From IMG/VR virus record IMGVR_UViG_2778261252_000011: a stretch of DNA of 42,392 nucleotides, one strand, 5' to 3'. Position 1 is the stretch's first letter. Each line of letters begins with the position of its first letter. The DNA comes from a virus. Taxonomy: Duplodnaviria; Heunggongvirae; Uroviricota; Caudoviricetes. Below the pieces are notes generated by a model. That model saw only the letters and a list, made by a program, of their open reading frames with translations. It was not told where the DNA came from and did no database searches. The translations under genes and the position numbers were made by a program. Below are positions 1-42,392 of this stretch, in pieces.

Positions 1-1236
1 CTACGATAACCGCGCATTCAACATGGCTATCTGTTCGTCGTTCATGTCATCAATCCACATACCGTAAATTTCATACACCATCTGCGCAGTTTCATGCCCC
101 ATTTGGCTGGCTATAAATGCCGGGTTCGCTCCTGCCGTCAACAGCCAGCAGGCAAAAGTATGCCGCGTATGGTACGGATTACGGCGGCGAATACCAGCAC
201 GTTTTACTGCTGCATTCCACCTTGCCCCCAAACTGCTTACCGAGTAATAAGGTTTTTGTTTTCCGTTACACACCCTGGGCATGAAAACAAAATGCAGTTT
301 TTGCTTTTCGGTTCTGCCGTACTCCCGATGATAAAAGGTGATTTCGCTTTTGCGATGATGCCCGGTCAGTTTGTATTGCTCCTTCAGTGCTTCAAGAGCA
401 GGCTGCAGTAGTGTTACTGTTCGGATCCCGGCATTTGTTTTTGGGGGACCGAACATATCAAGTATCGTCAGGTTTCTTCTGACATTCACTATTCCCTTTT
501 CGAGATCCACATCCTCCCACGCCAGAGCTGCCAGTTCCCCGTGACGAAGTCCTGAGTAAACGGCAAATTTCCACAAGTTCTGGCTCTGTCCTTTTTCACT
601 TTCCATTAATGCATTGAATTCTGTTTTAGATAACGGATCAGGCTTTATTCTGTTTCGCTGTAATTTTTTTACTCCTTCAAATGGTTTGGTTGATATAAAT
701 CCCGACTGATACGCAAAACGCAACAGCGAACAGAGCAGGGCGATATAGTTATCAACTGTGCGCACGGTTCTTCCTTTTTTGTTGGATCTTGGATTATCCA
801 GGTAAAGCGTTTCTCCATGCAGCAGTTCATTCCGGTAGTTTAAGATATCGCTATAACGAATATGTGATATCGGGGTACTTTCACAAATTATTATTCTGAG
901 TGTTTTTAATTGTGATTTCGTTTTCTTCATTGTGTTTGTTGTTAACTCTGTCTCTTTAATTTTTGTCCAGATATCACAAAGCTCTCCGAACGTTTTTATG
1001 ACTCTCGTTGTCACCATTTTTGCCCCAGTGCTGGACTGGGGAAAACGTCTTAAATACTCAAATTCACCGGAGTTTATTTCATGAACTATCAGCGCTCTTA
1101 AATTTCCGGCCTTTTTAATATTACTGTTTGTAATCTCCCAGCCTTTTAATGTTTCCCGACATCGTTTTCCTCGAAACATGAACCAGATGCGAATGTATCT
1201 ACCTCTAATCTCGACACCTGTTGGTAATTTAGACAT
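1..1236 (-). CDS. intR: Tyrosine-recombinase phage integrase (411 aa), Rac IntR-like; stop codon is the first three bases of the window
   Basis: Full 411-aa ORF; C-terminal integrase motifs (R..HxxR..Y region: RHTFACWLL...YEIYG); position at the prophage end, next to an excisionase-like gene. Confidence 0.9.
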   Translation of the reverse strand: MSKLPTGVEIRGRYIRIWFMFRGKRCRETLKGWEITNSNIKKAGNLRALIVHEINSGEFEYLRRFPQSSTGAKMVTTRVIKTFGELCDIWTKIKETELTTNTMKKTKSQLKTLRIIICESTPISHIRYSDILNYRNELLHGETLYLDNPRSNKKGRTVRTVDNYIALLCSLLRFAYQSGFISTKPFEGVKKLQRNRIKPDPLSKTEFNALMESEKGQSQNLWKFAVYSGLRHGELAALAWEDVDLEKGIVNVRRNLTILDMFGPPKTNAGIRTVTLLQPALEALKEQYKLTGHHRKSEITFYHREYGRTEKQKLHFVFMPRVCNGKQKPYYSVSSLGARWNAAVKRAGIRRRNPYHTRHTFACWLLTAGANPAFIASQMGHETAQMVYEIYGMWIDDMNDEQIAMLNARLS

Positions 1237-1237
1237 A

Positions 1238-1453
1238 TCATGAGTCTTTGATAAACTGATTTATCTTTGGATAGTTGTACCAGATAATCCCTCGTTTGCT
1301 GTCTGGCTTACCTAAAGGAGATACTCGTTTGAAGTGGAAGCCCTCCACCCAACAGTTCTGGCGGTATGCTTCAATTTGTCTGGCCCCCAGACCAGTGCGA
1401 AGCATCAGGCCGTATTCAACCATCCACTCTTCATTAAAGATTACTTGTGCCAT
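1238..1453 (-). CDS. xisR: Excisionase-like protein (71 aa), Rac XisR/YdaQ-like
   Basis: Small ORF immediately upstream of int on the same strand; internal Met ([10 protein letters not shown]...) gives the 71-aa size I recall for YdaQ. Confidence 0.7.
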
Positions 1454-1531
1454 CGCATCACCTCTGGCAGGCGCCAATGTTAGACTGAAATTGACGCCCG
1501 ATGTTGATTATTAATAATCAGCTATGAAGTT

Positions 1532-1741
1532 TTAATTTGAATACAATGCAATTCTCGAGGACTGAAGTTTCTCGCAATTAAAATTTATCAGTTTTACTTT
1601 CTGCTCTCTGGAAACGCCTGCTTCTTTTTTACCTGAGAGCATTTTTTCGCATTCTGATTTCGTTAGTTTAGATTTTGAATATCTTGTCCAGTTAGTAGGA
1701 GTGCCACCTTCCTTTTCAATAGTGGCGGTAATTTTATACAT
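1532..1741 (-). CDS. ydaC: YdaC-like small prophage protein (69 aa)
   Basis: ORF MYKITATIEKEGG... with a GGAGG Shine-Dalgarno 6 nt upstream; same position as ydaC in Rac. Confidence 0.6.
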   Translation of the reverse strand: MYKITATIEKEGGTPTNWTRYSKSKLTKSECEKMLSGKKEAGVSREQKVKLINFNCEKLQSSRIALYSN

Positions 1742-1928
1742 GAACACCTCCATTATTATTTCCAGTGGTTCGTTTATTCCATCTTTCGAGTGCTTCTTTT
1801 TCACTTCCACCATAACCGGTTCGGGATTCGCATCCGTTACACTTCGCTCGGTAATATCCTGAAATGGCTTTCACCGTTACTGATGGACAACCACAAAATG
1901 GACATGGTTTAACATTGTCATATCTCAT
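1734..1928 (-). CDS. ralR: RalR (Lar) restriction-alleviation protein / type I toxin (64 aa)
   Basis: Translation MRYDNVKPCPFCGCPSVTVKAISGYYRAKCNGCESR... matches my recollection of RalR; 8-bp overlap with ydaC. The partner RalA antisense sRNA is known from the literature, but I cannot place it from sequence. Confidence 0.8.
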   Translation of the reverse strand: MRYDNVKPCPFCGCPSVTVKAISGYYRAKCNGCESRTGYGGSEKEALERWNKRTTGNNNGGVHV

Positions 1929-1984
1929 AATTTTTCTCATAAAAAATATTTCAAGTTGGCGGTGCATTACACCGCCAGGCTGAA

Positions 1985-2794
1985 TTATTCCTCTGAATTA
2001 TCGATTACACTGTATTCCCCGGTTAATACAGAGGAATCTGCAGGATCGATTGTCAGTGGTTCCTTTTCATCCATTGATACTGCACGCTGGATCTCAATTG
2101 ATACGGGCAGATATTTGAACAGGCGACGAATAGCCGTTTTCTTTGCCATTTCTTCCCAGTGAGTTACCCACGGCCCGTTATTACCAGCTTTACTCAGGCT
2201 GCGCACCAGCTCAATCTGTTTGCGCGTCATAACTTCAAACTGAGTACCTCCGTCTTTCAGTCTTGCGACAGCATAGACGTGGGTAACCGGGGCATCTTCG
2301 TTTTCTCCCGGGCGGTGTATTAACTTTTCATCAAGGCCAAATTCGAAGCTAAACTCGTCACCTTCACGGACAACACGGGCTGACAGGCTGGCGATTTGAC
2401 CAGAACGGCGAGCCAGATCAATCATGCCGCGATAGCCAATGATTAGCTGAACGTTCTTTTTACCGCTCTTTTCGTTTTTATTACCAAAAGGCAGTAAATA
2501 TGCATGACCGAGGGCGCTACCTGGCTCAAGTCCGAGCTGTGAACACTGTACGATCGCACTGACAAAACTCATAGTGTCACAGTTTCCTAACGCCGGAACT
2601 TTACGAATTTCTGTAGTGGCGATACGGATCATACGTTCAGCCGTCATATGGCGTGGAAGAGCTGCTGCCAGTTGCTCTTTCATTGATGGCTGGTTAATAA
2701 AACTAATCACGTCGCTATTTTTAACTGCTGCTGGTGCACGGTTTCCCTGAGTTTTTTGCAGATCGGCTTTTGCGATTGGTGGTTGCTTAGTCAT
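1985..2794 (-). CDS. recT: RecT single-strand annealing recombinase (269 aa)
   Basis: Translation from [16 protein letters not shown]...; start overlaps the recE stop, as in the recET operon. Confidence 0.9.
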
Positions 2795-5387
2795 TTGCAT
2801 ATTCCTTAGCCCAGCGGGGCAGTGATAATGTCTTAATAGCTGGCCATTCATCGGTATTCAGGCAGTCAGACAGGGTTCGCAGATTGCGGTGATATTCCTG
2901 TTGACCTGCCAGTTTTGCTTCTTCGCCCATCATGAAAATTTCAACCGGATAACGTCCGCATTCAATAGTTGTGCTGGCAACCAGAAAAACGAAAGTTGGC
3001 TGCACTCCAAACTGTGCTTCATAACCGTCACTGTAGAATGCATCCTGAACGTGATAGCGGTAGTCGTAATAAGCGGTTTTGAATCGTTGAATATCCGCCG
3101 TAGTTTTCACGTCCATGATCCAGTGAAATTCAGGGATAATTTTGTCCGGACGGCACCGACACAAAATTCCTGTTTCAGGATCTTCCCAGTAAATTGATGA
3201 TTCAGCGTGTCCGGCGCTTTCAACAAGCCATTGCCCCAGCGGCAAAGCCATAACGCTTTGATACATGAGTTCAATTTTCCGGCCTTCTTCCGCAGTGATA
3301 ACCGTTTTTCCTGTGCTTGCGCATTCCATCAGAAACGCTTTCTCTTCTTCTTTTCCGGCGTTTGTACGGCGGTTAAATTCAGGTGCTACGATAAAGCGGT
3401 TACTGAATTCTTCCGGTTCAAGTACCCGGCAGTGGAAAGCAGTTCCTAAATCGAGCGTTTTTGTCTTTGTGGTGTCCACGGGGGCATTTTTACGCCACAA
3501 ATATAGTGCCGGAGTATCAGCAATGTCATCGAGCTGAGACTTACTGATACCGGGACCCGCGTGGTAATTCTCATTCGAAATTCCGTAATAAATACCTGGC
3601 TCTATGTCTTCTACGATTACGGGATCTGCGACTTCGCCAGTTTCATCACTGCAATCGTGATGCGGATCGCTGCCAGCATTCTCATTGTGCGGATGTTCAG
3701 CGCCTTCCATTTCCTCCGGATCATTTTCCTTAGCTTCAACCTGACTCTCTTCATCGAATGTTTCCTGGTATGTTGCGTCGCCCATCACCGCACCACAGTC
3801 AGGGCAGTTATCCCCGCCAGTCTGGCCGCAGGCATTGCAGGCTATTTCCGGTTCCTGTTGCACTACTGGCTCAGGTTGATTCATATCTGGGCTGGTTTTT
3901 TCCGTTTCTGGCTGGTTCTGGTACACACAATCGCGAGTCTGGATCCCCTTTACCCATTTCGGATCGTTCGGGTCGCTAATTCCGTCAACAAATTCACCAC
4001 GTGATGCAGCAAGCAATTTATCGGCATCGACAGGATTTTTTGATGGAATGTTTTTCCGGGCTTCATGGAGTTCTGCCCGCAGTTCCTGATATTTCGCATC
4101 AACAGAATTTACCTGTGACTGAGCATCCAGCGGCTGCGTGTCCTGATGATGTTCAGTTGCGTCCGGTTCCATTGTTTCAGCCTCTCCCTGTTCAACTGCC
4201 GTTGTTCCAGATGGTTGCGGTTTTTCTTCATCATCCTGTTTTCCTTCTTCTGTTACTCGCTGCGGCATCGGGGCAGAGGAGCGACCGCAGGCAATATCCA
4301 CGATTTCCGGATCAGGGTTGGCATGATCGGTTTCAGTCAGTACTTTGTTCAGATATTCAGTGACGTGCGCGGGGATGACCTCGATCCCAATTGGTGCTTC
4401 TTTTACGGACGCAACCACGATGGCGCGGGAATAATCCAGCCCGCCAGGCATGGTGATGAATTTGTCGCGGAAAACAGAAAAGGGCGGTTTATTTTCAGCG
4501 ATAATTTCCTCAATGCGTTTAGCGTGTGCCGGATGAAGGTTATAGATGTCCAGATCCATTGAACGGGCCAGTACGCCAGTGGCTACGTCGCGCGCCAGTG
4601 ACGTCAGATCGTGTACGAAACCTTCGCCGCGATCGGTGAGGTTTCCGCCGCCAGCATTAGCACCGGAAGCCGTGCGAGTGATGTGTGAAACACGATTACC
4701 CTTCATCCACTCTTTTGTCAGCAGTCCTCGATCGGTGTAGTCAGCGTTCAGGTATGCTTCGAAAAAAGCAGTTATCAGTCCCAGGTTTGAATTACCAGGA
4801 TTAGGGAAAACTTTGTCAGTGTCACGAACCAGTTTGTGGAGTTCGCGAATTTCCAGCGGGTCGAGCAGGCTGGTTTTGTGGGAAACAGCCAGGGCAGTAA
4901 CAGCCGGTAGTTCTTCAGCCCGAGCAATGTGTAATGCCTGGAGTCCGTCGCGTGAAACGTGCGTTACCGGTTTTTCGCTGCCGTGTTGAGCAAGCCAACG
5001 AATGGGCAGTTCCTGGCCAGAAATTGGGAGTAGCATATTCTCCTCAATCTCAGTCATGTCTTCGCCGTTGACGTTGGTATTGCCTTGATAATGAGCGTTG
5101 TCTGGTGCTGCTCCCGGTTTTAGTTCCCATGTCATGGAGTCTTTGCTGAGTTGATAGCGTTCACTCCAGGTAAAATCGATCTCACCTTCAGCGGGCAGGT
5201 CATTAACGACAGGAAAATTCGTGGCAACAGCTTTAAAATAGCTGCTCAGTTTTTTACCTGACTTAACGATCAGGTAGTCCAGAGTGGCACAGGTCGATTC
5301 AAAATCGTTGCTTGCCCACAGGACGACGTCAGGTTCACCGGATGATTTTTTCGCTTTCCGTAACAGGAAGAGTGGTTTTGTGCTCAT
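2787..5387 (-). CDS. recE: RecE exodeoxyribonuclease VIII (866 aa)
   Basis: 866-aa ORF upstream of and overlapping recT; size and context match Rac recE. Many antisense ORFs lie inside it and are rejected. Confidence 0.9.
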
Positions 5388-5488
5388 TGTTTTTTAACCT
5401 CAACTCAGATTAAAATTCGTTTTGTTCAGTGAATGATCTTGCCGGATACACACTGTTCATAGCCTGCGCCATACGCAGGCTATTTCTT

Positions 5489-5764
5489 TCAGATTTCACC
5501 TTTTAATTTCATTGCAATTAGAGTTGCCAGAAATTCGGCTTTTTTTTCTGCGGGCAGATTCTTTCCGATATGCACCAGGCACATTTTTTTGACACCTTCA
5601 TCAAGTGTTTTTACGTTGCCTGATGGACCATCGATATCAACCACAGTGAATGGGGTTTCTTTATTTTCTGTTTTAATTACGTAGCCAATGTGCTTTCCTT
5701 CCAGATTCACCTCGTGAACAATGTCATCGGTAGTTACAACAGTGGCTTCATAATTGGTAATCAT
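5489..5764 (-). CDS. racC: RacC-like protein (91 aa)
   Basis: Translation MITNYEATVVTTDDIVHEVNLEGK... from an internal Met of the 107-aa ORF. Confidence 0.7.
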   Translation of the reverse strand: MITNYEATVVTTDDIVHEVNLEGKHIGYVIKTENKETPFTVVDIDGPSGNVKTLDEGVKKMCLVHIGKNLPAEKKAEFLATLIAMKLKGEI

Positions 5765-5838
5765 GTTTTTCTCCTTAATTAAGGTTGAGCGAATACCTGC
5801 CATTTCTGGCATAAATTCAGTTTCGAATAGTCAATTAA

Positions 5839-6009
5839 TTAAAGTTCATGTGCCATCTGGTCTTTTTCGGCACAAGCTTCACTGCAATATTTTCTCGGTT
5901 CGTCTTTTGATAAAATCCCGTGCATGAAGTGAAGCATTCTTTCAATAGCTTTGCTTTCTTCAACGTCTTTTTTGCAAAGGTGGTAAGCACATTTTATTTT
6001 CTTAGTCAT
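5839..6009 (-). CDS. ydaE: YdaE-like Cys-rich metal-binding protein (56 aa)
   Basis: Hand translation of the minus strand gives [14 protein letters not shown]...MAHEL with stop at 5839-5841; below the 60-aa cutoff of the ORF track; start overlaps the kilR stop by 1 nt. Confidence 0.6.
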   Translation of the reverse strand: MTKKIKCAYHLCKKDVEESKAIERMLHFMHGILSKDEPRKYCSEACAEKDQMAHEL

Positions 6010-6230
6010 CACCATGACTCCGCCTTTACAGGTAAACCATCACGACCGAGGAAGACTTTAATCATGCGGTCAGTAATGCATGTTTTTGTGGTCAGGTTAC
6101 GAATATATAGTTTTCGCTTTTTAATATTGTTTGCCGAGGCAATATATGTCCGGCCTTCATGAAGAACATAATCGCCAGGAGTCACACACTGACGTGGTAT
6201 TTCATCAGTTCCGAAGTGATGTGCAATCAT
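6009..6230 (-). CDS. kilR: KilR cell-division (FtsZ) inhibitor (73 aa)
   Basis: Translation [46 protein letters not shown]... matches Rac KilR. Confidence 0.8.
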
Positions 6231-6671
6231 AATTATCTCCATTTTTACAAATGAACTTTGTTGATGCGGTGCCTGGTGCCTCCAGGTGACTGCAACCAGT
6301 TAACAATTACAGTCGGCTTTCCCACCCAAACCAATAAGGACTAACATGACTTTTAACTGTGCCACGTGCGCTTAGCCGCATTCACCGCATCACAAAATTC
6401 ACTTTAAAAAGGGCGGACATCAGCCGAACTTCAAGAAAAAAACTGATGCCGCCAGGACTACACACAGCAATGTCGTTATTTACAACCGGAGGCGCACTCC
6501 CACCATTTAAATTTAACAGACAAGACCGACTCTTTATGGATATCGGAAATGCGCCTTCGTGTTGTGCCCGGTTTTATTTCACCACCTCCGGGCTTCGGTG
6601 GTCTCGGCTATACCCCTACAGCGAGAGCTTGTGTTAACATTTCAATACCCTTACAGTTGAGAGTTATTGAT

Positions 6672-7160
6672 ATGTTGGATGTATTTACTCCATTGTTGAA
6701 ACTTTTTGCTAACGAGCCACTCGAAAGACTTATGTATACGATTATCATTTTTGGTCTCACTCTCTGGCTGATACCGAAAGAGTTTACTGCCGCATTCAAT
6801 GCTTATACTGAAATACCTTGGCTCTTTCAGATTATCGTTTTTGCCTTTTCTTTCGTGGTCGCCATTTCCTTCTCAAGATTGCGAGCACATATTCAAAAGC
6901 ATTATTCATTACTACCAGAGCAACGAGTATTGCTTCGTTTATCTGAGAAAGAAATCGCTGTATTTAAAGATTTCCTTAAAACAGGAAATCTTATTATCAC
7001 TTCTCCTTGCCGTAACCCGGTTATGAAAAAATTAGAACGGAAGGGCATCATTCAACATCAGAGTGATAGCGCAAACTGTTCTTATTATCTCGTCACCGAA
7101 AAATACTCCCATTTTATGAAGTTATTCTGGAACAGCAGGAGTAGACGTTTTAATCGTTAG
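6672..7160 (+). CDS. sieB: SieB superinfection-exclusion protein (162 aa, membrane)
   Basis: Translation MLDVFTPLLKLFANEPLERLMYTIIIFGLTLWLIPKEF...; internal Met of the 203-aa ORF; hydrophobic N-terminal segments. Confidence 0.85.
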   Translation: MLDVFTPLLKLFANEPLERLMYTIIIFGLTLWLIPKEFTAAFNAYTEIPWLFQIIVFAFSFVVAISFSRLRAHIQKHYSLLPEQRVLLRLSEKEIAVFKDFLKTGNLIITSPCRNPVMKKLERKGIIQHQSDSANCSYYLVTEKYSHFMKLFWNSRSRRFNR

Positions 7161-7312
7161 CTTACTGTGTGCTTCTCCAACCATCGGCGCGCACCAGTTT
7201 CGGTTTTAAATGTTTTGCTTTTGGTATACGTCATGGCAGTGAACGTTCCATCCTGGTTGGGGAACACGCCGCACACCAGGGATTCGTTGTTGCCGAGGTC
7301 GATTTTTTGCAT
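7157..7312 (-). CDS. ydaF: YdaF-like small protein (51 aa)
   Basis: Hand translation MQKIDLGNNESLVCGVFPNQDGTFTAMTYTKSKTFKTETGARRWLEKHTVS; 4-nt overlap with the sieB end; the name is assigned by position and size only. Confidence 0.4.
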   Translation of the reverse strand: MQKIDLGNNESLVCGVFPNQDGTFTAMTYTKSKTFKTETGARRWLEKHTVS

Positions 7313-7322
7313 TTTGCGAATC

Positions 7323-7457
7323 TCACATCTTGTTGCTACGTATAGCGACTTCTGCCTGCCAGAGATCCCAGTCGTTGCTGCGTAAAGCCTGCACAGCCTT
7401 GTTGTAAGTGATACCGCAACAATCCATCAAATACTGAACTACTTCGTAATGCACCAT
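7323..7457 (-). CDS. ydaG: YdaG-like small protein (44 aa)
   Basis: Hand translation MVHYEVVQYLMDCCGITYNKAVQALR...IRSNKM with stop at 7323-7325. Confidence 0.5.
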   Translation of the reverse strand: MVHYEVVQYLMDCCGITYNKAVQALRSNDWDLWQAEVAIRSNKM

Positions 7458-11510: not shown

Positions 11511-11525
11511 TTGCCGGAGGCACCT

Positions 11526-27840: not shown

Positions 27841-27860
27841 ATAAATCATTTATTACAACA

Positions 27861-30166: not shown

Positions 30167-30169
30167 CAC

Positions 30170-31329: not shown

Positions 31330-31718
31330 AGTTTACTGAAATCAGAAATACGGTTATTTCCAGAATGACGGCACAGACGATTATTGATGGAAAAGACGTA
31401 TTGTATCCGAACGGGCCAACGTTCGATCCTTCCGGTAAGTTAATCTGGGCGCGGTTAAGTAATATTCCCGGGCAGGCTGGAGTTAATGAAATTGGCGCGG
31501 GGCCGGTTGTTTATCGCACGGGGATAATCATTATTCAGTTATTTGTCCCCGCAGGTTCTGGTTCAAAACTCATTACTGAGACAGCCGATAAATTGCGGGA
31601 ACTGTTTGAGTTTCAGGATGACGATCGTCTCAGTTACCAGGCTGTTTCCTCAATAGCCGTCGGCGAAAAGAATGGCTGGTTCCAGCTTAATCTTCAAATT
31701 CCATATCGCGCGCTCTAG
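31326..31718 (+). CDS. Tail terminator-like protein (130 aa)
   Basis: Position immediately upstream of the major tail protein. Confidence 0.45.
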   Translation: MKFTEIRNTVISRMTAQTIIDGKDVLYPNGPTFDPSGKLIWARLSNIPGQAGVNEIGAGPVVYRTGIIIIQLFVPAGSGSKLITETADKLRELFEFQDDDRLSYQAVSSIAVGEKNGWFQLNLQIPYRAL

Positions 31719-31744: not shown

Positions 31745-32707
31745 GTGAGTTCAGGTGCAAAGGTTATCTCGGCATTTATCCGGGAGACGGTTGCAGGCAC
31801 TACGCCAGCAAGTGGTGACTGGAGTTTATTAAAACGCACAAGCTGGGGAGTAAAACCCACCCAGAATAAAGGCGAAAATAATGAGATTGGTGGCTCCCGG
31901 ATGGCTCAGGGGGCGACGCCTGGCACTGTGGATGTCGGCGGTGATGTTGGTACCAAATTTCGCTGGGGTCAACATGATGATTTTCTTGCATCCTGTTTCG
32001 GCGCGGAATGGTCAGGCGATTCTCTGACAATGGGGAATGAGCGAATAACATTTTCTCTGGCGACCTATGCGTCCGATGTCGGAATTGCCTCTGTCGTCAG
32101 AGGAGCGCAGGTTGGCTCATGGAAAATGCAGATCCCTAACGACGGCGATATTACAGCGACCGTAACCTTTGCCGGACTGGACTGGGAATCAAAGGCCGAT
32201 GATACGAATTTTATCAAAGGCGAACCTGTGGATAGTGCAGGAAAGCTACGTTATTCGTTTAAGGAGGTTTCAGCAGTAAGCCTGAATGGTGTTGCCGGAG
32301 GTAACGGTTTTTGTATCGACAGTTTTGATATTCAGTTCGATAACAAACTCCAGACACAGCGTTGTATCGGGACTGGCTCGCCTTATGCAGGAGCAAATAT
32401 TCCGACTACTTTTACACCGTCCGGTACGGTGACGCTTTCATGGTCTAAAGCCGCGTGGGAAATCTGGAGTAAAACACTGACTGGAGAAACAGTTCCGTTC
32501 AGCTTCACGCTTTCGAATGGAGAGGGGGCATACACTTTCAGTTTCCCGAAGGTTCAGGTGTCAGGTGAATGGCCTGATGGGGGTAATAGCGACATTATCC
32601 AGGTTCAATTGAGCATTACCGCAGCAGATGAAGCACCTACGATAACCAGAAAAAAAAATTCCCCGGCTGCCGTGATCGCAAAAGCCAGTGCTGAGGCGAT
32701 TAGTTGA
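31745..32707 (+). CDS. Major tail (tube) protein (320 aa), GTG start
   Basis: GGAGG Shine-Dalgarno before GTG 31745; position upstream of the chaperone pair and tape measure. Confidence 0.7.
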   Translation: MSSGAKVISAFIRETVAGTTPASGDWSLLKRTSWGVKPTQNKGENNEIGGSRMAQGATPGTVDVGGDVGTKFRWGQHDDFLASCFGAEWSGDSLTMGNERITFSLATYASDVGIASVVRGAQVGSWKMQIPNDGDITATVTFAGLDWESKADDTNFIKGEPVDSAGKLRYSFKEVSAVSLNGVAGGNGFCIDSFDIQFDNKLQTQRCIGTGSPYAGANIPTTFTPSGTVTLSWSKAAWEIWSKTLTGETVPFSFTLSNGEGAYTFSFPKVQVSGEWPDGGNSDIIQVQLSITAADEAPTITRKKNSPAAVIAKASAEAIS

Positions 32708-32755
32708 TTTTCCGTTATTCCTCCTGTGGTACTGCCCTACAGGGGGACGCATTGA

Positions 32756-33217
32756 ATGAGGTTATGGATGTTTATTCTTAATCAGAAAATTATCATTGGT
32801 GGAGAACGCTGGTTTACGCCAATGAAGGACTTAAAACCTGTAGACGGGTTAAAACTGTTGGTGGCAAGCAGCGATAACGATCAGTATCGCTCCCGTAATG
32901 CATTAATCCGTCGCCACATTGAGAAAATGGATGCCAGTTTGCACGTCGGAACGAAGGAGTTTGATATTTCAAAGGTTTCCGAGGTGGATTCTGTTGATGA
33001 TTTACTCATTGATAATGCCGCTCGTTATCTGCTGAAAGACTGGAAAGGGGTTGGTGAACTGGTTAATGGTGTTGAGGTTGCACTGGAATATACGGCAGAA
33101 CGAGGGATCGCGCTGCTCAAGCAGAATCCAGAGTTGTACTGGCAGATCCTTGCAGAAGCAGCCAGCATCGCCCAGGGTAAAGAGCAGCAGAAGCAGGATA
33201 CGATAAAAAAGCCATAG
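32756..33217 (+). CDS. Tail assembly chaperone (G-like, 153 aa)
   Basis: AGGGGGA Shine-Dalgarno; ends just after the slippery heptamer A AAA AAG. Confidence 0.7.
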   Translation: MRLWMFILNQKIIIGGERWFTPMKDLKPVDGLKLLVASSDNDQYRSRNALIRRHIEKMDASLHVGTKEFDISKVSEVDSVDDLLIDNAARYLLKDWKGVGELVNGVEVALEYTAERGIALLKQNPELYWQILAEAASIAQGKEQQKQDTIKKP

Positions 33218-33525
33218 CTGCCCAGCGGTGGTTATCGGAGTTCGGGGGAGAAAGGGGGGAAAAGGCAAGATGGAAGCGAGAAAAACTCAGGTTGCCACCG
33301 ATACCGGAACCAGAAATAGACCCGGTGCTTAAGGAGTTGTTGTACGCCTATTCGGTAATATCCCGTGCCCGACGTTATGCTGGAATGGCTGGGGTGCCTT
33401 TGCCTTTATCTCTGACAGAGATAAATGAATATTTAGCCACTCATCCGGTATTGATTGAGCGCGATGAATTTGAAGCAGTGATCTTTGCACTGGATGACCA
33501 GTATTTTCAGGAGCAGTGTGTGTAG
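32756..33525 (+). CDS. Tail assembly chaperone G-T-like fusion made by -1 programmed frameshift at A AAA AAG (33205-33211)
   Basis: The -1 frame is open from the slippery site through 33525 with no stop; same arrangement as lambda G/GT. Confidence 0.6.
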
Positions 33526-33688: not shown

Positions 33689-36600
33689 ATGGCAGAGCAA
33701 ACCTCGCGTCTCGCAATAATTATTGATAGCACTGGAGCAAAAAATAATGCTGACAATCTGACCTCCTCATTAGTCAAAATGACGCAGGCCGGGGAAACTG
33801 CTGCAAATAGCGCAGGGAAAGTGACTAAGGCAACAGAAGATGAGAAGAACGCGCTCGCAAAATTAAAAGCAGCTATTGATCCAGTTGGTGCCGCAATTGA
33901 TACTGTCGGTCGACGCTATTCTGAATTAAAGAAATTTTTCGATAAAGGGCTTATTGATAAAGAAGAATATGAATTTCTTGTCCGTAAACTTAATGAAACC
34001 ACAGAGGAATTGAGCGGGGTTGCGCAAGCGCAGAGAGAAGCCGAGAAGGCCGGAAAACTTGCTGCCGCCCAGCAGGAATCGCAGGCTCAGGCCTTTCAAA
34101 GAATGCTGGACAAGATCGACCCTCTGGTTGCGGCGCTAAGAAATCTTGAACAACAGCAGGATGAACTTAATGCTGCGTTTGCATCCGGGAAAATAAATGG
34201 TTCTCAGTTTGAGAATTATAGCCGAAAAATACAGGAAACACGGCGAGAGCTTACCGGAGAGGCTCAGGCAGAGCGAGAAGCAGCAAAAGCGCATGATGAA
34301 CAGGTTGCTGCTTTGCAACGTCTGATTGCTCAACTTGACCCTGTCGGAACTGCTTTTAATCGTCTGGTAGAACAACAGAAACAGCTCAATGAAGCAAAAG
34401 CTAAGGGGATGCTCTCTCCTGAAATGTATGAGGAACTTTCTGGAAAACTTCGTGCTATGCGGAGTGAGCTTGAGGTTACTCAATCTCAATTAAGCAAAAC
34501 CGGAATGTCGGCAAAACAAACGGCTTTTGCTATGCGCATGTTGCCTGCACAAATGACGGATATTGTTGTTGGGTTGTCCACTGGTCAGTCGCCTTTTATG
34601 GTGTTAATGCAGCAGGGCGGCCAGCTAAAAGATATGTTCGGTGGGATTGGCCCGGCGATCAAAGGTGTTGGTTCTTATGTGCTGGGATTAATTAATCCTT
34701 TTACCCTGGCCGCAGCAGCCGTTGGCGTCTTAGGGCTGGCTTACTATAAAGGCTCTCAGGAGCAGGACGAATTTAATAAATCTCTTATTCTTACCGGAAA
34801 TCAGTTGGGGACAACCAGCGGGCAATTGGCCGATATAGCTCAACGTGCCGGGAATGCGGCTGATTCGACAACTGGCGCTGCGGCGGCAGTATTAAACCAG
34901 CTTGTGCGTTCGGGAAAGGTAGCGAGCAGTTCGCTGGAGCAAGTGACGACAGCGATAGTAAAAACGAGCGAAGTAACAGGAATATCAACCGAACAACTGG
35001 TTAATGACTTCAATGAAATTGCAAAGGATCCTGTCAGTGCCATATCAAAACTTAATGATCAGTACCATTTTCTGACAATTGCGACTTATAACCAGATTAA
35101 GGCGCTACAGGATGAAGGGAACCAGCAGGAGGCCGCCCGCATTGCGACAGAAGCATACTCATCCTCAATGATCCAGCGCACCAACCAGATTAAAGAAAAT
35201 CTTGGTTATCTTGAGACTGCATGGAAAGCTGTCGCAGACTCCGCAAAATGGGCATGGGATTCCATGCTGGATATTGGCCGTGAGGCCTCCCTTGATCAAA
35301 AAATCTCAGATGTTCTCCGTCAAATTGATGAAATAGAAAAAAATACCCGACCCGGAGTTTTCGGGTTAGGTGGCATTGGAGATGGCGGAGCTCAAAATAA
35401 AAGGCTGGCACGATTAAAGCAGCAATTGGGCGTACTTCAAGCAGAAAAAATTGCTCAGGACGTACTAAATTCATCAATAAACGATTACAACAAGCGACAA
35501 CAGGAAGGAATTGAACTCAGACAGAGAGCAGATGCCTTTTCAAAACAATATCAGACCCGGGAGCAGCAGAGAGCTAGTGAACTTGCAAAACTGGAAAAAC
35601 TAAAGAGTCAGTATTCAAAGGAAGAATATAATAATCTTATCGCTCAAATAAATGAGCGTTATAAAGATCCAAAGCAACCAAAGGCGAAAGGTTATTCGGA
35701 TGATGCTGCCCAACGAATGATTGATCATCTGAATCAACAGAATGCGTTACTAAGTTCACAAACTGAATTAACCGTTAAATTAAGTTCCTCTGAACAGGAA
35801 CTGGTTAAGTGGCGTCAGCAGATTGCCGACCTGGAGTCACGACCGTCATCGAAATTAACCAAGGATCAGAAATCGCTTCTCTTACACCGGGAAGAAATAA
35901 CCGCGTTGATGGAGAAAAATGTTGCGATTGAAAAAAATAACAGGCTAATCAAGGAATCCGCCGAAATAGCTGCATGGCGTGATTCATTGCAGGCTTCGAT
36001 TGATAATCGTCAACAGGGGTATGATATTCAGATTGCTGGTTATGGGGTTGGCGATAAAAATCAGCAACGCCAGCAGGAATTACTGCGGATTGAACGTGAA
36101 TATAACAATCAGCGTCTGCAACTTGAACGTGACTATGCAGATAAATCCCGTGGGATGTCAAATCATGTTTTTCAGGAGAAAATGCAGGCTCTGAATGATG
36201 CTCTGGAACGAGAAAAAGAAATTGTCAGACAGAAAAACGAGCAGCTCGATATTCAGGCAGGAGACTGGGTTAGTGGTGCCTCCCAGGGATTCAATAACTG
36301 GCTGGATGACACTAAGGATATCAGTGAGCAGATAAAATCAACCACGACTCAGATGTTTGATGGAATGACCGATGCGCTGGGTGATTTTGTCACGACAGGC
36401 AAGGCAAATTTTCGTTCTTTCGCTACTTCCGTGATTTCGGATCTTAGTCGAATAGCATTAAAGGCTTCAATTACTCGGATTTTCGACAGCATTAGTAACA
36501 GTTCTTCGGGGGGGATTTTAGGAACTATCGGGAGTGCTATTAGTAAATTTATTCCGAATGCAAAGGGCGGTGTTTATGAGTCTCCGTCATTGAACACGTA

Positions 36601-36922
36601 TTCGAACGGTATTTATGATTCCCCGCAATTTTTTGCTTTTGCAAAAGGGGCTGGTGTTTTTGGTGAGGCTGGTCCGGAAGCCATTATGCCATTAACACGA
36701 ACTTCCGATGGTTCTCTTGGTGTCAGAGCTATTAATAGTAAAAGTGGTAATGGAGGCGGAGATATTACCTATGCCCCTGTATACCAAATCACTATTCAAA
36801 ATGACGGCCAGAATGGAGAGATTGGCCCTCAGGCAATAAAAGCACTTATGGGGATGGTTGATCAGCGGGTGCAGGGCAATCTGTTAAATATGCGACGTGA
36901 TGGGGGAATGTTAAGTGGCTAA
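33689..36922 (+). CDS. Tail tape measure protein (1077 aa)
   Basis: Very long, Ala/Gln-rich coiled-coil protein located between the chaperone pair and gpM. Confidence 0.9.
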
Positions 36923-37253
36923 TACGGAAGAATTTCACTGGTTACCAGAGGATGGAATGAAAACAGAAAATAAACCATCGATAAAAACTGTAAGATTTGG
37001 CGATGGTTATGAGCAACGAAGTCCAAATGGACTTAATCATTCTCTGCGCGTTTTCACCTGTGATTTCAAAGTTGAGGCGAATGAACGTGATTCATTTGAA
37101 AAATTTTTAGCCCGGCATGAAGGCTATAAATCTTTTTTTTGGCGCCCGCCTGGTATTAACAGAAAAATCAGAGTGGTGTGTCGAACGTGGTCAGCGACAG
37201 AACATATCACCTATACCGATTTTTCGTGTCAGTTTGACGAAGTGGTGATCTGA
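36915..37253 (+). CDS. Minor tail protein M (112 aa, lambda gpM-like)
   Basis: Contains [10 protein letters not shown], close to the lambda M sequence as I recall it. Confidence 0.9.
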
Positions 37254-37951
37254 TGCAGGACATACAACAGGAAACGCTGAATGAATGCATTCGTGCGGAG
37301 CAGTCGGCCAGCGTGGTGCTCTGGGAAATCGACCTGACCGAGGTAGGCGGGGATCGCTACTTTTTCTGCAATGAGCAGAACGAGAAAGGAGAGTCTGTCA
37401 CCTGGCAGAGTCGGCAGTATCAGGCCTATCCCATTCAGGGGAGTGGATTTGAGATGAACGGCAAAGGTGCCAGTGCAAGGCCAACGCTGAAAGTCTCTAA
37501 TCTGCACGGCATGGTCACCGGGATGGCGGAAGACCTGCAGAGTCTGGTCGGCGGAACGGTGGTCAGGCGTAAGGTTTACGCCCGTTTTCTGGATGCGGTG
37601 AACTTCGTCAACGGAAACAGTGACGCCGATCCGGAGCAGGAGGTGATCAGCCGCTGGCGTATTGAGCAGTGCAGCGAACTGAGCGCGGTCAGTGCCTCCT
37701 TTGTACTGTCCACGCCGACGGAAACGGACGGCGCTGTTTTTCCGGGGCGCATCATGCTTGCTAATACCTGCACCTGGACCTATCGCGGTGATGAGTGCGG
37801 TTATCACGGTCCGGCGGTCGCGGATGAATATGACCAGCCGACATCCGAAATCACGAAGGATAAATGCAGCAAATGCCTGAGTGGCTGTAAGTTCCGCAAT
37901 AATGTCGGCAACTTTGGCGGCTTCCTTTCCATTAACAAACTTTCGCAGTAA
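37253..37951 (+). CDS. Minor tail protein L (232 aa, lambda gpL-like)
   Basis: Sequence similarity to lambda L by recollection; C-terminal Cys cluster. Confidence 0.9.
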   Translation: MQDIQQETLNECIRAEQSASVVLWEIDLTEVGGDRYFFCNEQNEKGESVTWQSRQYQAYPIQGSGFEMNGKGASARPTLKVSNLHGMVTGMAEDLQSLVGGTVVRRKVYARFLDAVNFVNGNSDADPEQEVISRWRIEQCSELSAVSASFVLSTPTETDGAVFPGRIMLANTCTWTYRGDECGYHGPAVADEYDQPTSEITKDKCSKCLSGCKFRNNVGNFGGFLSINKLSQ

Positions 37952-37956
37952 ATCCC

Positions 37957-38700
37957 ATGACAGAGACAGAATCAGCGATTCTGGCGCACGCCCGGCGATG
38001 TGCGCCAGCGGAGTCGTGCGGCTTCGTGGTGAGAACGCCGGAAGGGGAAAGATATTTTCCCTGCGTGAATATCTCCGGTGAGCCGGAGGCGTATTTCCGG
38101 ATGGCTCCGGAGGACTGGCTGCGGGCAGAAATGCAGGGTGAGATTGTGGCGCTGGTCCACAGTCACCCCGGTGCTCTGCCCTGGCTGAGTGAGGCCGACC
38201 GGCGGCTGCAGGTGCAGAGTGATTTGCCGTGGTGGCTGGTCTGCCGGGGGGCGATTCACAAGTTCCGCTGTGTGCCACATCTTACCGGGCGGCGCTTTGA
38301 GCACGGGGTGACGGACTGTTACACGCTGTTCCGGGATGCTTACCATCTGGCGGGAATTGAGATGCCTGATTTTCATCGTGAGGATGACTGGTGGCGTCAC
38401 GGTCAGAATCTCTATCTGGATAATATGGAGGCAACGGGGCTGTATCAGGTGCCGTTGTCAGCGGCGCAGCCGGGCGATGTGCTGCTGTGCTGTTTTGGTT
38501 CATCGGTGCCGAATCATGCCGCCATTTACTGTGGTGACGGCGAGCTGCTGCACCATATTCCTGAACAACTGAGCAAACGAGAGAGGTATACCGACAAATG
38601 GCAGCGACGCACACACTCCCTCTGGCGTCACCAGGCATGGCACGCATCTGCCTTTACGGGGATTTACAACGATTTGGCCGCCGCATCGATCTGCGTGTGA
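37957..38700 (+). CDS. Tail assembly protein K (247 aa, lambda gpK-like)
   Basis: Near-identity to lambda K by recollection (TESAILAHARRCAPAESCGFVV...). Confidence 0.9.
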   Translation: MTETESAILAHARRCAPAESCGFVVRTPEGERYFPCVNISGEPEAYFRMAPEDWLRAEMQGEIVALVHSHPGALPWLSEADRRLQVQSDLPWWLVCRGAIHKFRCVPHLTGRRFEHGVTDCYTLFRDAYHLAGIEMPDFHREDDWWRHGQNLYLDNMEATGLYQVPLSAAQPGDVLLCCFGSSVPNHAAIYCGDGELLHHIPEQLSKRERYTDKWQRRTHSLWRHQAWHASAFTGIYNDLAAASICV

Positions 38701-39239
38701 AAACGGGGGCCGAAGCCATCCGGGCGCTGGCCATGCAGATCCCGGCGTTTCGTCAGAAGCTGAGCGACGGCTGGTATCAGGTACGCATTGCCGGGCGTGA
38801 TACAGGTGAAACGGAATTATCAGCCCGTCTTAATGAACCGCTGGCAAATGGTGCTGTGATCCATATCGTGCCGCGTCTGGCAGGAGCCAAAAGTGGCGGT
38901 GTGTTTCAGGCTGTGCTGGGGGCGGCTGTTATGGCGGTTGCTATATGGATGCCGGGGGTAGGAATTATGGCGAGTAATCTGCTGTTTTCTCTCGGTGCCA
39001 GTATGACGCTTGGCGGTGTTGCACAGATGCTGGCCCCTAAACCCAAAACCCCCCGCACACAGACAACGGATAACGGCAAACAGAACACCTATTTTTCTTC
39101 ACTGGATAATATGGTTGCCCAGGGCAATGTTCTGCCCGTTCTGTACGGGGAAATGCGCGTGGGGTCACGTGTGGTTTCTCAGGAGATCAGCACGGCAGAC
39201 GAAGGGGATGGTGGCCAGGTTGTGGTGATTGGTCGCTGA
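38598..39239 (+). CDS. Tail assembly protein I (213 aa, lambda gpI-like)
   Basis: Near-identity to lambda I by recollection; overlaps the 3' end of K. Confidence 0.9.
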   Translation: MAATHTLPLASPGMARICLYGDLQRFGRRIDLRVKTGAEAIRALAMQIPAFRQKLSDGWYQVRIAGRDTGETELSARLNEPLANGAVIHIVPRLAGAKSGGVFQAVLGAAVMAVAIWMPGVGIMASNLLFSLGASMTLGGVAQMLAPKPKTPRTQTTDNGKQNTYFSSLDNMVAQGNVLPVLYGEMRVGSRVVSQEISTADEGDGGQVVVIGR

Positions 39240-39257
39240 TGCAAAACATTTTATGTG

Positions 39258-39284
39258 AAACCGCCTGCGGGCGGTTTTGTCGTT
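39258..39284 (+). terminator. Terminator-like hairpin between I and J
   Basis: Stem AAACCGCC / GGCGGTTT with loop TGCG, followed by TGTCGTTT. Confidence 0.4.
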
Positions 39285-39299
39285 TATGGAGCGTGACGA

Positions 39300-42200
39300 A
39301 TGGGTAAAGGCAGCAGTAAGGGGCATACCCCGCGCGAAGCGAAGGACAACCTGAAATCCACGCAGTTGCTGAGTGTGATTGATGCCATCAGTGAAGGGCC
39401 GATTGAAGGTCCGGTGGATGGATTAAAAAGCGTGCTGCTGAACAGTACGCCAGTGCTGGACAGTGAGGGGAATACCAATATCTCCGGTGTCACGGTGGTG
39501 TTCCGGGCAGGTGAGCAGGAGCAGACACCGCCGGAGGGATTTGAATCCTCCGGCTCCGAGACGGTGCTGGGTACGGAAGTGAAGTACGACACGCCGATTA
39601 CCCGGACCATCACGTCTGCAAACATCGACCGTCTGCGCTTTACCTTCGGTGTGCAGGCACTGGTGGAAACCACCTCAAAGGGTGACAGGAATCCGTCGGA
39701 AGTCCGTCTGCTGGTTCAGATACAGCGTAACGGTGGCTGGGTGACGGAAAAAGACATCACCATTAAGGGCAAAACCACGTCGCAGTATCTGGCCTCGGTG
39801 GTGGTGGATAACCTGCCGCCGCGCCCGTTTAATATCCGGATGCGCAGGATGACGCCGGACAGCACCACAGACCAGCTGCAGAACAAAACGCTCTGGTCGT
39901 CATACACAGAAATCATCGATGTGAAACAGTGCTACCCGAACACGGCACTGGTCGGCGTGCAGGTGGACTCGGAGCAGTTCGGCAGCCAGCAGGTGAGCCG
40001 TAATTATCATCTTCGCGGGCGCATTCTGCAGGTGCCGTCGAACTATAACCCGCAGACGCGGCAATACAGCGGTATCTGGGACGGAACGTTTAAGCCAGCA
40101 TACAGCAACAACATGGCCTGGTGTCTGTGGGATATGCTGACCCATCCGCGCTACGGCATGGGGAAACGTCTTGGTGCAGCAGATGTGGATAAATGGACGC
40201 TGTATGTCATCGGCCAGTACTGCGACCAGTTGGTACCGAATGGTTTTGGCGGCACGGAGCCGCGCATCACCTGTAATGCCTGGCTGACCACACAGCGTAA
40301 GGCGTGGGATGTGCTCAGCGATTTCTGCTCGGCGATGCGCTGTATGCCGGTATGGAACGGGCAGACGCTGACGTTCGTGCAGGACCGACCGTCGGATAAG
40401 GTGTGGACCTATAACCGCAGTAATGTGGTGATGCCGGATGATGGCGCGCCGTTCCGCTACAGCTTCAGCGCCCTGAAGGACCGCCATAATGCCGTTGAGG
40501 TGAACTGGATTGACCCGAACAACGGCTGGGAGACGGCAACAGAGCTTGTGGAGGACACGCAGGCCATTGCCCGTTACGGTCGTAACGTCACGAAGATGGA
40601 TGCCTTTGGCTGTACCAGTCGGGGGCAGGCACACCGAGCCGGGCTGTGGCTGATTAAAACAGAACTGCTGGAAACGCAGACCGTGGACTTCAGCGTGGGT
40701 GCTGAAGGGCTTCGCCATGTACCGGGCGATATCATTGAAATCTGCGATGATGACTATGCCGGTATCAGCATCGGCGGGCGCGTGCTGGCGGTGAACAGCC
40801 AGACCCGGACGCTGACGCTCGACCGTGAAATCACGCTGCCATCCTCCGGTACCACGCTGATAAGCCTGGTTGACGGAAGCGGCAATCCGGTCAGCGTGGA
40901 GGTCCAGTCCGTCACCGACGGCGTGAAGGTAAAAGTGAGCCGTGTTCCTGACGGCGTTGCCGGATACAGCGTATGGGGGCTGAAGCTGCCGACGCTGCGC
41001 CAGCGCCTGTTCCACTGTGTGAGTATCCGTGAGAACGATGACGGCACGTATGCCATCACTGCCGTGCAGCATGTACCGGAAAAAGAAGCCATCGTGGATA
41101 ACGGGGCGCACTTTGACGGCGACCAGAGCGGCACGGTGAATGGTGTCACGCCGCCAGCGGTGCAGCACCTGACTGCCGAAGTCACCGCAGACAGCGGGGA
41201 GTATCAGGTACTGGCCCGCTGGGACACGCCGAAGGTGGTGAAGGGCGTGAGTTTCCTGCTTCGCCTGACCGTGGCAGCGGATGACGGCAGTGAGCGGCTG
41301 GTCAGCACGGCCCGGACGGCGGAAACCACATACCGCTTCACGCAACTGGCGCTGGGGAACTACAGGCTGACAGTCCGGGCGGTAAATGCGTGGGGACAGC
41401 AGGGCGATCCGGCATCGGTATCGTTCCGGATTGCCGCACCGGCAGCGCCGTCACAGATTGAGCTGACGCCGGGCTATTTTCAGATAACTGCCACGCCGCA
41501 TCTTGCGGTTTATGATCCGACGGTACAGTTTGAGTTCTGGTTCTCGGAAACGCGGATTACCGATATCAGGCAGGTTGAAACCACAGCCCGCTACCTTGGC
41601 ACGGGGCTGTACTGGATAGCCGCCAGTATCAATATCAAACCGGGCCATAATTATTATTTTTACGTTCGCAGTGTGAACACCGTTGGCAAATCGGCATTCG
41701 TGGAGGCTGTTGGTCAGCCGAGTGATGACGCATCCGGCTATCTGGATTTTTTCAAAGGCGAGATAGGGAAAACCCATCTGGCTCAGGAGCTGTGGACGCA
41801 GATTGATAACGGTCAGCTTGCGCCTGACCTGGCTGAAATCAGGACATCCATTACGGATGTCAGCAATGAAATCACACAGACCGTCAATAAGAAACTGGAA
41901 GACCAGAGTGCAGCGATCCAGCAGATACAGAAGGTTCAGGTTGATACAAATAATAACCTGAACAGCATGTGGGCCGTGAAACTGCAGCAGATGCAGGACG
42001 GACGCCTTTATATTGCGGGTATCGGTGCCGGTATTGAGAATACGCCAGCAGGAATGCAGAGTCAGGTGCTGCTGGCGGCAGACAGGATTGCGATGATTAA
42101 TCCTGCGAATGGCAACACAAAGCCGATGTTTGTTGGTCAGGGTGATCAGATATTCATGAACGACGTGTTCCTGAAATATCTGACGGCTCCCACCATTACC

Positions 42201-42392
42201 AGCGGCGGTAATCCTCCTGCATTTTCCCTTACACCGGACGGGCGACTGACGGCGAAAAATGCGGATATCAGTGGCAGTGTGAATGCGAACGCCGGGACGC
42301 TCAACAATGTCACGATAAATGAAAACTGTCGGGTTCTGGGAAAACTGTCTGCGAACCAGATTGAAGGCGATCTCGTTAAAACAGTGGGCAAA
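39300..42392 (+). CDS. Tail tip / host specificity protein J, 3'-partial (first 1031 codons; continues beyond the window)
   Basis: Hand translation from ATG 39300: [41 protein letters not shown]..., near-identical to lambda J as I recall it. It is missing from the ORF track only because it has no stop within the window. Confidence 0.95.

Follow-up and report, generated by a model that had tools for sequence, protein, structure and literature searches.

Rac, the cryptic prophage that occupies the locus between ttcA and uspF/ompN in Escherichia coli K-12, is described in a review citing Lawrence et al. 2001 as incomplete in K-12 and intact in EDL933 (PMC6379469). The rac-like prophages Sp10 (strain Sakai) and CP-933R (strain EDL933) of O157:H7 reside in ttcA, and their leftmost 8 kb are 99% identical to K-12 Rac (PMC4632033). 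Rac-SA53 is among the full-sized Rac-like prophages that have been described as well (PMC5917428). Frazao et al. 2019 (PNAS) described KingRac, a Rac-like element of 46.8 kb located at ttcA, which took the place of K-12 Rac in the mouse gut (PMC6731689). KingRac formed particles, with a reported 99-nm head and 249-nm tail, and showed weak mitomycin C induction (PMC6731689). To these elements we compare the virus record IMGVR_UViG_2778261252_000011 of IMG/VR, a stretch of 42,392 nucleotides that was analysed over its whole length and is referred to here as the window. Sp10 and CP-933R resemble it in being full-size lambdoid prophages in ttcA, a likeness drawn from published descriptions under which the late modules may differ, while KingRac, likened to the window by description only, provides an experimental precedent for an active Rac relative. 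Very probably, the window represents the integrase-to-J part of a near full-length, lambdoid temperate prophage of the Rac lineage, and K-12 Rac is a derivative of such a prophage that has suffered three deletions and gained an insertion sequence (IS), IS5.

Alignment by BLASTN of the window to the Rac locus of K-12 MG1655 (b1345-b1375) resulted in four collinear blocks with identities of 94.7-99.8%. The first block (window 1-9105) extends from intR to ydaT and is 99.81% identical, with 17 mismatches and zero gaps. The second (9600-11198) comprises the 3' part of ydaU, ydaV and the 5' part of ydaW at 94.7% identity, the third (18879-21302) rzpR/rzoR, trkG and ynaK at 99.3%, and the fourth (32866-34623) ydaY and ynaA at 99.0%. 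All 23 of the 23 K-12 Rac proteins were located in the window by TBLASTN with order and orientation conserved, and the 15 proteins from IntR to YdaT were 97.7-100% identical to those of K-12. The integration module of Rac is present with IntR and XisR each 100% identical, and the early-left recET-kilR-sieB genes and the racR-ydaS-ydaT immunity region are contained in the same ungapped stretch of 9,105 bp. The K-12 late remnants rzoR, trkG, ynaK, ydaY and ynaA all have syntenic full-length counterparts in the window. An alignment of this kind had been proposed as a check in the original prediction, and it shows the early region to be Rac-like and the K-12 remnants to be syntenic. The claim that the early region is collinear with Rac gene for gene held with respect to gene order and the 15 proteins just mentioned, but not for YdaU, of which only the C-terminal 124 residues match.

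Three blocks of the window are missing from K-12 Rac. Deletion 1 covers window 11199-18878 (7.7 kb) and deletion 2 covers 21303-32865 (11.6 kb), both as determined by BLASTN, whereas deletion 3, which was mapped on the chromosome of E. coli VE-V10-F (see below), extends from 34624 to the window end at 42392 and onward into lom, amounting to about 8.4 kb in total with at least 7.8 kb in the window. A 2-nt microhomology (AA) is present at the junction of deletion 2, and no clear microhomology was seen at the other deletion junctions. The blocks absent from K-12 carry accessory genes, Q, two tRNAs, and lysis, packaging, head and tail genes. The K-12 genes at the breakpoints are composed of pieces of intact window genes. 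K-12 YdaW consists of residues 1-151 of a 253-aa DUF1627 protein followed by 34 residues from the Rz frame, a chimera over deletion 1, so that ydaW (K-12 Rac locus 13753-14313) corresponds to window 10749-11201, holding the first 151 codons of the DUF1627 gene, plus 18880-18981. K-12 rzpR/rzoR represent the 3' part of the window Rz/Rz1 genes, from 18879 onward. YnaK (ynaK at 16378-16641 of the K-12 Rac locus, window 21049-21306) is the first 86 of the 264 residues of a ParB-like protein, YdaY the last 116 of the 153 residues of a tail assembly chaperone, whose gene it matches from 32867 onward, and YnaA (ynaA at 17455-18483, window 33689-34624) the first 312 of the 1077 residues of the tape measure protein. 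It is because the K-12 breakpoint genes are truncated or chimeric pieces of intact window genes that K-12 Rac is regarded as the derivative; the reverse pattern, with complete junction genes in K-12 and fusions in the window, is contradicted, as the opposite was observed. As read from these breakpoints, the annotated K-12 ydaW, rzpR, ynaK, ydaY and ynaA are deletion scars and not genuine genes. The ancestor of K-12 Rac would have been about 99% identical to the prophage in the window, and would have given rise to K-12 Rac by acquiring IS5 and by losing internal blocks of 7.7, 11.6 and about 8.4 kb.

Comparing the two elements as they stand, K-12 Rac and the window share intR/xisR, recET, ralR/RalA, kilR, sieB and racR-ydaS-ydaT (97.7-100% at the protein level), trkG, the gene order and, as seen in VE-V10-F, the ttcA locus. 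They differ in that K-12 is without the 7.7, 11.6 and at least 7.8 kb kept in the window, in the N-terminus of YdaU, and in the IS5 of K-12, which the window does not have; moreover, the right end in K-12 is formed by pinR-ynaE, whereas relatives of the window have sitABCD there.

Lambdoid prophages are mosaic, and the window could in principle be a recombinant in which a Rac early region has been joined to an unrelated late region whose genes are not those lost by K-12. Rac-SA53 (KU052037; Jobling 2016) illustrates such a combination. It shares with the window the ttcA site, intR, ydaQ, ralR, recET, kilR, ydaT/U/V/W, irsA (DUF1367), ybcO and Q, with about 39% of the first 21 kb in common at 91% identity, but has a dicA/dicC-type immunity region, genes for LT-IIa and a pertussis-like toxin, and other lysis, head and baseplate-type tail genes, and has no trkG. 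The N-terminus of ydaU and the 94.7% block likewise show that local exchange has taken place. What K-12 keeps, however, are pieces of the lysis genes, trkG, and the ParB, chaperone and tape-measure genes found here, with unchanged order and 99.0-99.3% identity, which contradicts a recombinant origin of this kind and makes it highly improbable. Since these K-12 late scraps are syntenic in the window at about 99%, the late region is the one that K-12 lost and not an unrelated module, in agreement with the original prediction, which had stated that a late region lost by K-12 is retained here. Because the immunity region, the toxin cargo and the entire late module of Rac-SA53 are not those of the window, it is also evident that Rac-like elements are mosaic and that the window is the variant with K-12's own late genes.

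A megablast search with the whole window, covering 5,426 complete E. coli genomes, identified that of E. coli VE-V10-F (NZ_AP027971.1) as the closest. Its chromosome matches the window at 100% identity, the sole difference being a 777-bp IS1A, present in VE-V10-F and not in the window, which interrupts the 3' end of xisR and has a target duplication of 9 bp (window 1269-1277; NZ_AP027971.1 2619297-2619994). As this IS1A is missing from the window, either the window comes from a different isolate or assembly than VE-V10-F, or the IS1A was gained recently. The element of VE-V10-F is located between ttcA and uspF/ompN, which is the Rac locus. At its left edge ttcA adjoins intR (attL lies outside the window), and at its right edge a 43-bp core of the attachment (att) site and the last 152 bp of Rac, the ttcC/attR remnant, adjoin uspF. 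Insertion in the 5' end of ttcA and a ttcC/attR remnant by uspF, as characteristic of Rac, were accordingly found in VE-V10-F, at sites not within the window. The J protein is full length in VE-V10-F (1159 aa).

With regard to the right end, which also lies outside the window, the Rac lineage carries sitABCD, an iron/manganese transporter operon, between the tail fibre genes and attR. Close relatives have stf, a 135-nt tfa remnant and sitABCD; complete stf and tfa genes are present in one record (SPF_0923, ON032529.1), and VE-V10-F has an N-terminal fragment of stf and a sit operon cut to sitAB (regions compared: L001 2038-5041, L004 6254-13582, L005 5774-12914 and L017 24320-31592). Among strains this amounts to a successive decay from stf, tfa and sitABCD via stf, a tfa remnant and sitABCD to an stf fragment and sitAB. 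Literature searches for a link between sitABCD and Rac returned nothing relevant.

A number of observations weigh against the reading of the window as a near full-length and possibly still functional Rac prophage, some of them with respect to its ancestry and others to its completeness and activity. The ydaU'-ydaV-ydaW' block is just 94.7% identical to K-12, compared to at least 99% elsewhere, and the N-terminus of YdaU has been swapped; therefore the element is no pure ancestor of K-12 Rac. As judged by TBLASTN, only YdaU residues 162-285 (124 aa) align, at 79%, and an initiator identical in kind to that of K-12 Rac is consequently not found: the N-terminal 161 residues of the initiator (window 9185-9599) are non-homologous to K-12 YdaU and belong to another type of replication-initiator N-terminus (PHROG 2509). 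This difference is a case of local mosaicism, compatible with membership of the Rac lineage, and the recombination patch at ydaU'-ydaW' probably changes the origin specificity. Furthermore, the window spans from the intR stop codon to 387 bases short of the end of gpJ, so that neither attachment site is inside it; J runs out past its right edge, lom and the side tail fibre genes are likewise outside, and the window by itself is no measure of completeness. The sole record that is 100% identical, VE-V10-F, has the IS1A in the 3' end of xisR, only an N-terminal fragment of stf, no tfa, and has lost sitCD. A scan of the window for LexA boxes (CTGT-N8-ACAG) gave 15 one-mismatch matches where 12.2 were expected and 0 perfect ones, which is at the level of chance, and RacR has no Pfam family match and no recognisable autocleavage domain; based on these two results we identified no SOS-sensing element. 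That neither a cleavable repressor nor a LexA-controlled antirepressor could be recognised as the trigger does not show that none exists. We also considered whether GenBank "phage" records that share the late region could serve as proof of function, and rejected them, as they are in-silico prophage regions and not virion genomes: the vB_EcoS-...R# records (ON470614.1 among those examined) are in-silico prophage regions from clinical isolates that stop inside tail genes, and "Salmonella phage SPF_0923" (ON032529.1) includes host uspF, ompN and part of nifJ.

In favour of a functional prophage, each of the 54 coding sequences checked in the window has a start codon and is free of internal stops, and all but J, which runs into the window end, have a stop codon; the late proteins match their Pfam and PHROG family profiles essentially end to end. 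Frameshifts in the late genes, named in the original prediction as the finding that would overturn it, were sought and none was seen among the 54. The integration and immunity genes, near-identical to those of K-12 Rac, also count in favour of inducibility, and K-12 Rac still excises (PMC4632033). Taken together, we regard it as plausible but somewhat doubtful that the copy is still inducible and forms infectious particles.

These observations bear equally on an explanation that is about functional status alone and leaves the identity of the element untouched, namely that the reading frames in the window are intact but that the lytic cycle is blocked by damage outside it or by regulatory loss, the prophage being grounded and inherited vertically. 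The damage to xisR, stf, tfa and sitCD in VE-V10-F points in this direction, as do the mere tfa remnant of close relatives, the occurrence of the element at the same locus with 98-99% identity in hundreds of genomes, the failure to identify an SOS-sensing element and the decayed appearance of the Hok reading frame (see below). On the other hand, 54 open reading frames, among them about 30 genes for lysis, packaging, head and tail, would be unexpected under neutral decay. Side tail fibres are, moreover, dispensable in lambda, as in lambda PaPa. The window is without IS1, J is full length in VE-V10-F, a version with complete stf and tfa exists, and both transfer and particle formation have been demonstrated for KingRac, a Rac-like prophage at ttcA (PMC6731689). 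We consider a grounded prophage a strong contender that falls just short of being probable; the assignment of the window to the Rac lineage is the same in either case.

The left part of the window is organised as in K-12. The integration module (1..1453, minus strand) comprises intR (1-1236) and xisR (1238-1453), both with intact reading frames, and is followed by the early-left operon rcbA, ralR, recT, recE, racC, ydaE and kilR (1532..6230, minus strand), 98.6-100% identical to K-12. The small RNA RalA (1557-1735, plus strand; Rfam, 225 bits) lies antisense to ralR. A DicF-like small RNA upstream of kilR (6411..6466, minus strand) scored 39.1 bits in Rfam (E 3.6e-5), which is below the gathering score of 48; it was the only addition when Rfam was run over the window at a permissive threshold. 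It occupies the position of the K-12 small RNA kilS and parallels the DicF-dicB arrangement of prophage Qin. sieB (6672-7160, plus strand) and ydaF and ydaG (within 6672..7457, minus strand) encode proteins 97.7-100% identical to those of K-12. In the immunity region racR (7766-8242, minus strand) is opposed by ydaS (8366-8662, Cro-like) and ydaT (8685-9107, CII-like), with proteins 99.3-100% identical to K-12, and our functional reading of the three genes is taken from Jobling 2018 (PMC5917428). RacR would act as the repressor facing YdaS and YdaT, and integration would be carried out by IntR and XisR; both this regulatory circuit and the gene functions given here are what we infer from homology and the literature. 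Replication genes follow on the plus strand: an O-like initiator with a YdaU-like C-terminus (9185-9973; PHROG 2509 "replication initiation protein", 3e-88) and ydaV (9980-10726), a DnaC/IstB-like helicase loader with IstB_IS21 and DnaA ATPase domains.

Downstream of ydaV the accessory stretch begins with the full-length DUF1627 gene, a DUF977 Ren-like gene and a gene for a 167-aa protein without an assigned function (10749..12614, plus strand; profile matches). It continues with a KilA-N protein encoded on the minus strand (12735..13508), which matches PHROG 6287 "BstA" over its full length (2.7e-89) and has a Pfam KilA-N domain at residues 14-112 and a PADLOC BstA domain at residues 119-238 (3.2e-21). 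The combination of an N-terminal KilA-N domain and a BstA C-terminal domain that characterises the BstA family is present in this protein, and its gene is a candidate for a prophage abortive-infection defence. Characterised BstA proteins are abortive-infection defences of prophages and come with a cognate DNA element, aba; these self-immunity elements are homologue-specific and have been defined experimentally (PMC8585504). The gene is situated in the segment lost from K-12 Rac by deletion 1. An alternative role for the protein as a LexA-controlled antirepressor was rejected, as no LexA-box match was seen upstream of the gene and the protein is BstA-like and not Ant-like. A hok/sok-type locus is found at 13863..14156 (plus strand; Rfam sok, 101.5 bits). 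Its Hok reading frame has just 41 aa and ends in ...RTGRRRL, while an alternative frame reads QTEA... past the same point, which suggests that the toxin gene has been frameshifted and has decayed. Beyond a DUF1971 gene (14239..14580, minus strand; Pfam), an AT-rich stretch of 867 bp (14581-15447, G+C about 0.38) contained no reading frame above 43 aa on inspection and no convincing RNA in Rfam, including at the permissive threshold. On its other side lie a DUF1367 (IrsA-like) gene, starting at 15448 on the plus strand, and a YbcO-type nuclease gene, both identified with Pfam.

A Q-like antiterminator is encoded at 16334-16876 (plus strand; DUF1133, and Phage_antitermQ with 27.1 bits against a cut-off of 26), and promoter-like sites are present downstream of it. 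Between Q and the holin gene are tRNA-Thr(TGT) and tRNA-Gly(TCC) (17242..17395, plus strand; ARAGORN and Rfam) and, as found by a terminator scan, a strong terminator-like hairpin (17603-17618). The lysis cassette (17688..19316, plus strand) encodes a class II holin, a DUF1327 (YdfR-like) protein, a lysozyme and Rz, all with full-length Pfam matches, and Rz1 is embedded in Rz (19072-19257, plus strand). The Q-type antiterminator would let transcription pass the terminator and reach the two tRNAs and the genes for holin, lysozyme and Rz/Rz1. trkG (19454..20911, plus strand), a potassium-transporter moron, is 99.6% identical to K-12 TrkG. Its G+C of 0.38-0.41 is markedly below the 0.49-0.52 of the flanking lysis and packaging genes, and this, with its place between Rz and the ParB-like gene, is what one would expect of a moron.

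Packaging and head genes (22746..29947, plus strand; Pfam and PHROG, all reading frames intact) encode a 69-aa protein, the small (TerS) and large (TerL) terminase subunits, the portal (DUF4055), a MuF-like minor head protein, a scaffold protein (DUF6651) and a P22-type coat protein; TerL is of the T4 type (Terminase_6). The label "NAD+-asparagine ADP-ribosyltransferase", which some records give to the minor head protein, was rejected: the protein has 370 aa and is MuF-like, it matches only the N-terminal half of PHROG 241, and a toxin domain was not found in it. Genes for a 58-aa protein, the head-tail adaptor, head closure, tail completion and tail terminator proteins follow (29990..31718, plus strand; full-length matches to PHROG 493, 161, 169 and 179). 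The tail tube and chaperone region (31745..33525, plus strand; PHROG 290, 313 and 1189) starts with the tail tube gene (31745-32707) and the tail assembly chaperone gene G (32756-33217; PHROG 313). A slippery A_AAA_AAG in the X_XXY_YYZ register is located at 33205-33211 (plus strand), two codons ahead of the chaperone stop, and the -1 frame is open to 33525, encoding the T part (plus strand; PHROG 1189). The chaperone gene is a lambda G/GT arrangement with a predicted programmed -1 frameshift. In the annotation of the NCBI Prokaryotic Genome Annotation Pipeline (PGAP), as in K-12, this gene is named ydaY; its PGAP start is shortened (32858) and no frameshift product is annotated. The remainder of the window (33689..42392, plus strand) encodes the tape measure protein (1077 aa), M, L, K, I and the first 1031 codons of J, which is cut by the window end, as judged by the Pfam families TMP_2, Tape_meas_lam_C, Phage_tail_L, JAB with NlpC/P60, and Lambda_tail_I, together with PHROG 14. 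The tail-tip genes are 93-95% identical at the DNA level to those of lambdoid phages such as mEp332 and cdtI.

The overall order, int/xis, recombination, immunity, replication, Q, lysis, head and tail, is that of a lambdoid phage. Shared with lambda are this gene order, the Q-dependent late operon, Rz/Rz1, the predicted -1 frameshift in G/GT and the tail tip H-M-L-K-I-J, whereas the head is of the P22-coat/SPP1 type, TerL belongs to Terminase_6 and the repressors of the two phages are unrelated. Profile scans of the window proteins did not reveal an N homologue. In terms of late functions the layout would be that of a headful-type terminase and an SPP1/P22-type head module combined with a lambda-type tail (V, G/GT, H, M, L, K, I, J). 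The Q gene, tRNAs, lysis, head and lambda-like tail genes that the original prediction had listed are all present, but its "nin-like region" applies only loosely, to the DUF1367 and YbcO-type nuclease genes.

Directly upstream of the packaging genes is a pair of genes that overlap by 8 nt, one encoding a 264-aa ParB_N-domain protein (21049-21843, plus strand; Pfam ParB_N) and the other a 310-aa GT-A glycosyltransferase of the TAGT family (21836-22768, plus strand; Pfam TAGT, PF20691, 5.5e-35; PHROG 842, 1.4e-103), with PHROG 620/842 matching the pair. The Pfam match of the latter (121.6 bits) extends over positions 4-205 of the 205-position profile, and the residues of its acidic DXD-type motif, D102, D103 and D104, are invariant in 31 homologues. 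In the AlphaFold model of the protein, residues 1-150 are confidently predicted and the C-terminal third has low confidence; the best Foldseek matches were the GT-A enzymes SunS/ThuS, SpsA and glycogenin, with probabilities of 0.95-1.0 but TM-scores of only 0.25-0.39. A search of PDB sequences with the protein returned no match. A full-length profile match, a predicted GT-A fold and a DXD-type motif together indicate a member of the TAGT family. K-12 ynaK is, judging by the alignment, a dead remnant (the first 86 codons) of the ParB partner.

A ParB-like gene followed by a TAGT gene directly upstream of the terminase also occurs in phi jlb1 and c5, which are phages of Lactobacillus, in a phage of Porphyromonas, in Nocardia phage NTR1 and in two families of metagenomic phage contigs whose heads are of the HK97 type. 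The haloarchaeal virus HHTV-2 has the pair with the large terminase gene about 3 kb further downstream, and Vibrio phages of 191 kb have a TAGT gene without an annotated ParB (pair in the compared loci: L006 3274-4849, L007 3196-4858, L008 90-1713, L009 5229-6894, L011 5222-6852, L014 3-1720 and L015 2136-3918). Placement directly upstream of the terminase is nearly always observed, independent of head type. Between E. coli, Lactobacillus, Nocardia and haloarchaeal elements identity is 33-49% for the ParB partner and 40-47% for TAGT, and lower for the Porphyromonas phages (25% and 27.5%, respectively); the ParB partners are homologous along their whole length, the conserved C-terminal domain included. 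No TET/JBP dioxygenase or hydroxymethylcytosine pathway was found among the window proteins in profile scans, nor in the annotation of the small Lactobacillus, Porphyromonas and metagenomic phages that bear the pair. Solitary TAGT homologues are reported, and left unexplained, for 288 of the 753 phage genomes with TAGT in a 2026 paper that makes no mention of ParB (PMC13216743), and our literature searches for a link between ParB and TAGT gave nothing relevant. Our hypothesis is that of a late-expressed glycosylation module, the target of which may be canonical-base DNA or a protein. Put more specifically, and only tentatively as we hold it to be rather unlikely, the pair may be a conserved two-gene module heading the packaging operon that glycosylates non-hydroxymethylated phage DNA, or else a virion or packaging protein, with an anti-restriction or packaging-linked role. 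The pair is the most interesting by-product of the analysis and the sole item in it able to raise a real question.

Full-size relatives of Rac are already known, and the finding is in this respect correct but ordinary. In the megablast search, coverage of at least 80% was reached in 117 genomes for the first 21 kb of the window and in 686 genomes for the last 21 kb. Using a 200-bp probe across the K-12 deletion-2 breakpoint, we compared the undeleted form of the window with the junction form of K-12. The undeleted probe was found at full length in 1,099 of the 5,426 complete genomes, whereas no more than 348 had the K-12 junction, laboratory strains of K-12 accounting for many of these, so the undeleted form is about three times commoner than the K-12 form among complete E. 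coli genomes. As anticipated in the original prediction, the element displays the accessory loci of the Rac lineage: its cargo comprises RalR/RalA, KilR, SieB, a Ren-like and a BstA-like protein, hok/sok, two tRNAs, TrkG and ParB-TAGT, and outside the window Lom and SitABCD. In practice, the window provides a key for reading K-12, as it shows the origins of the scars in its Rac prophage, namely the DUF1627-Rz fusion and the fragments of the ParB-like, tail chaperone and tape measure genes.

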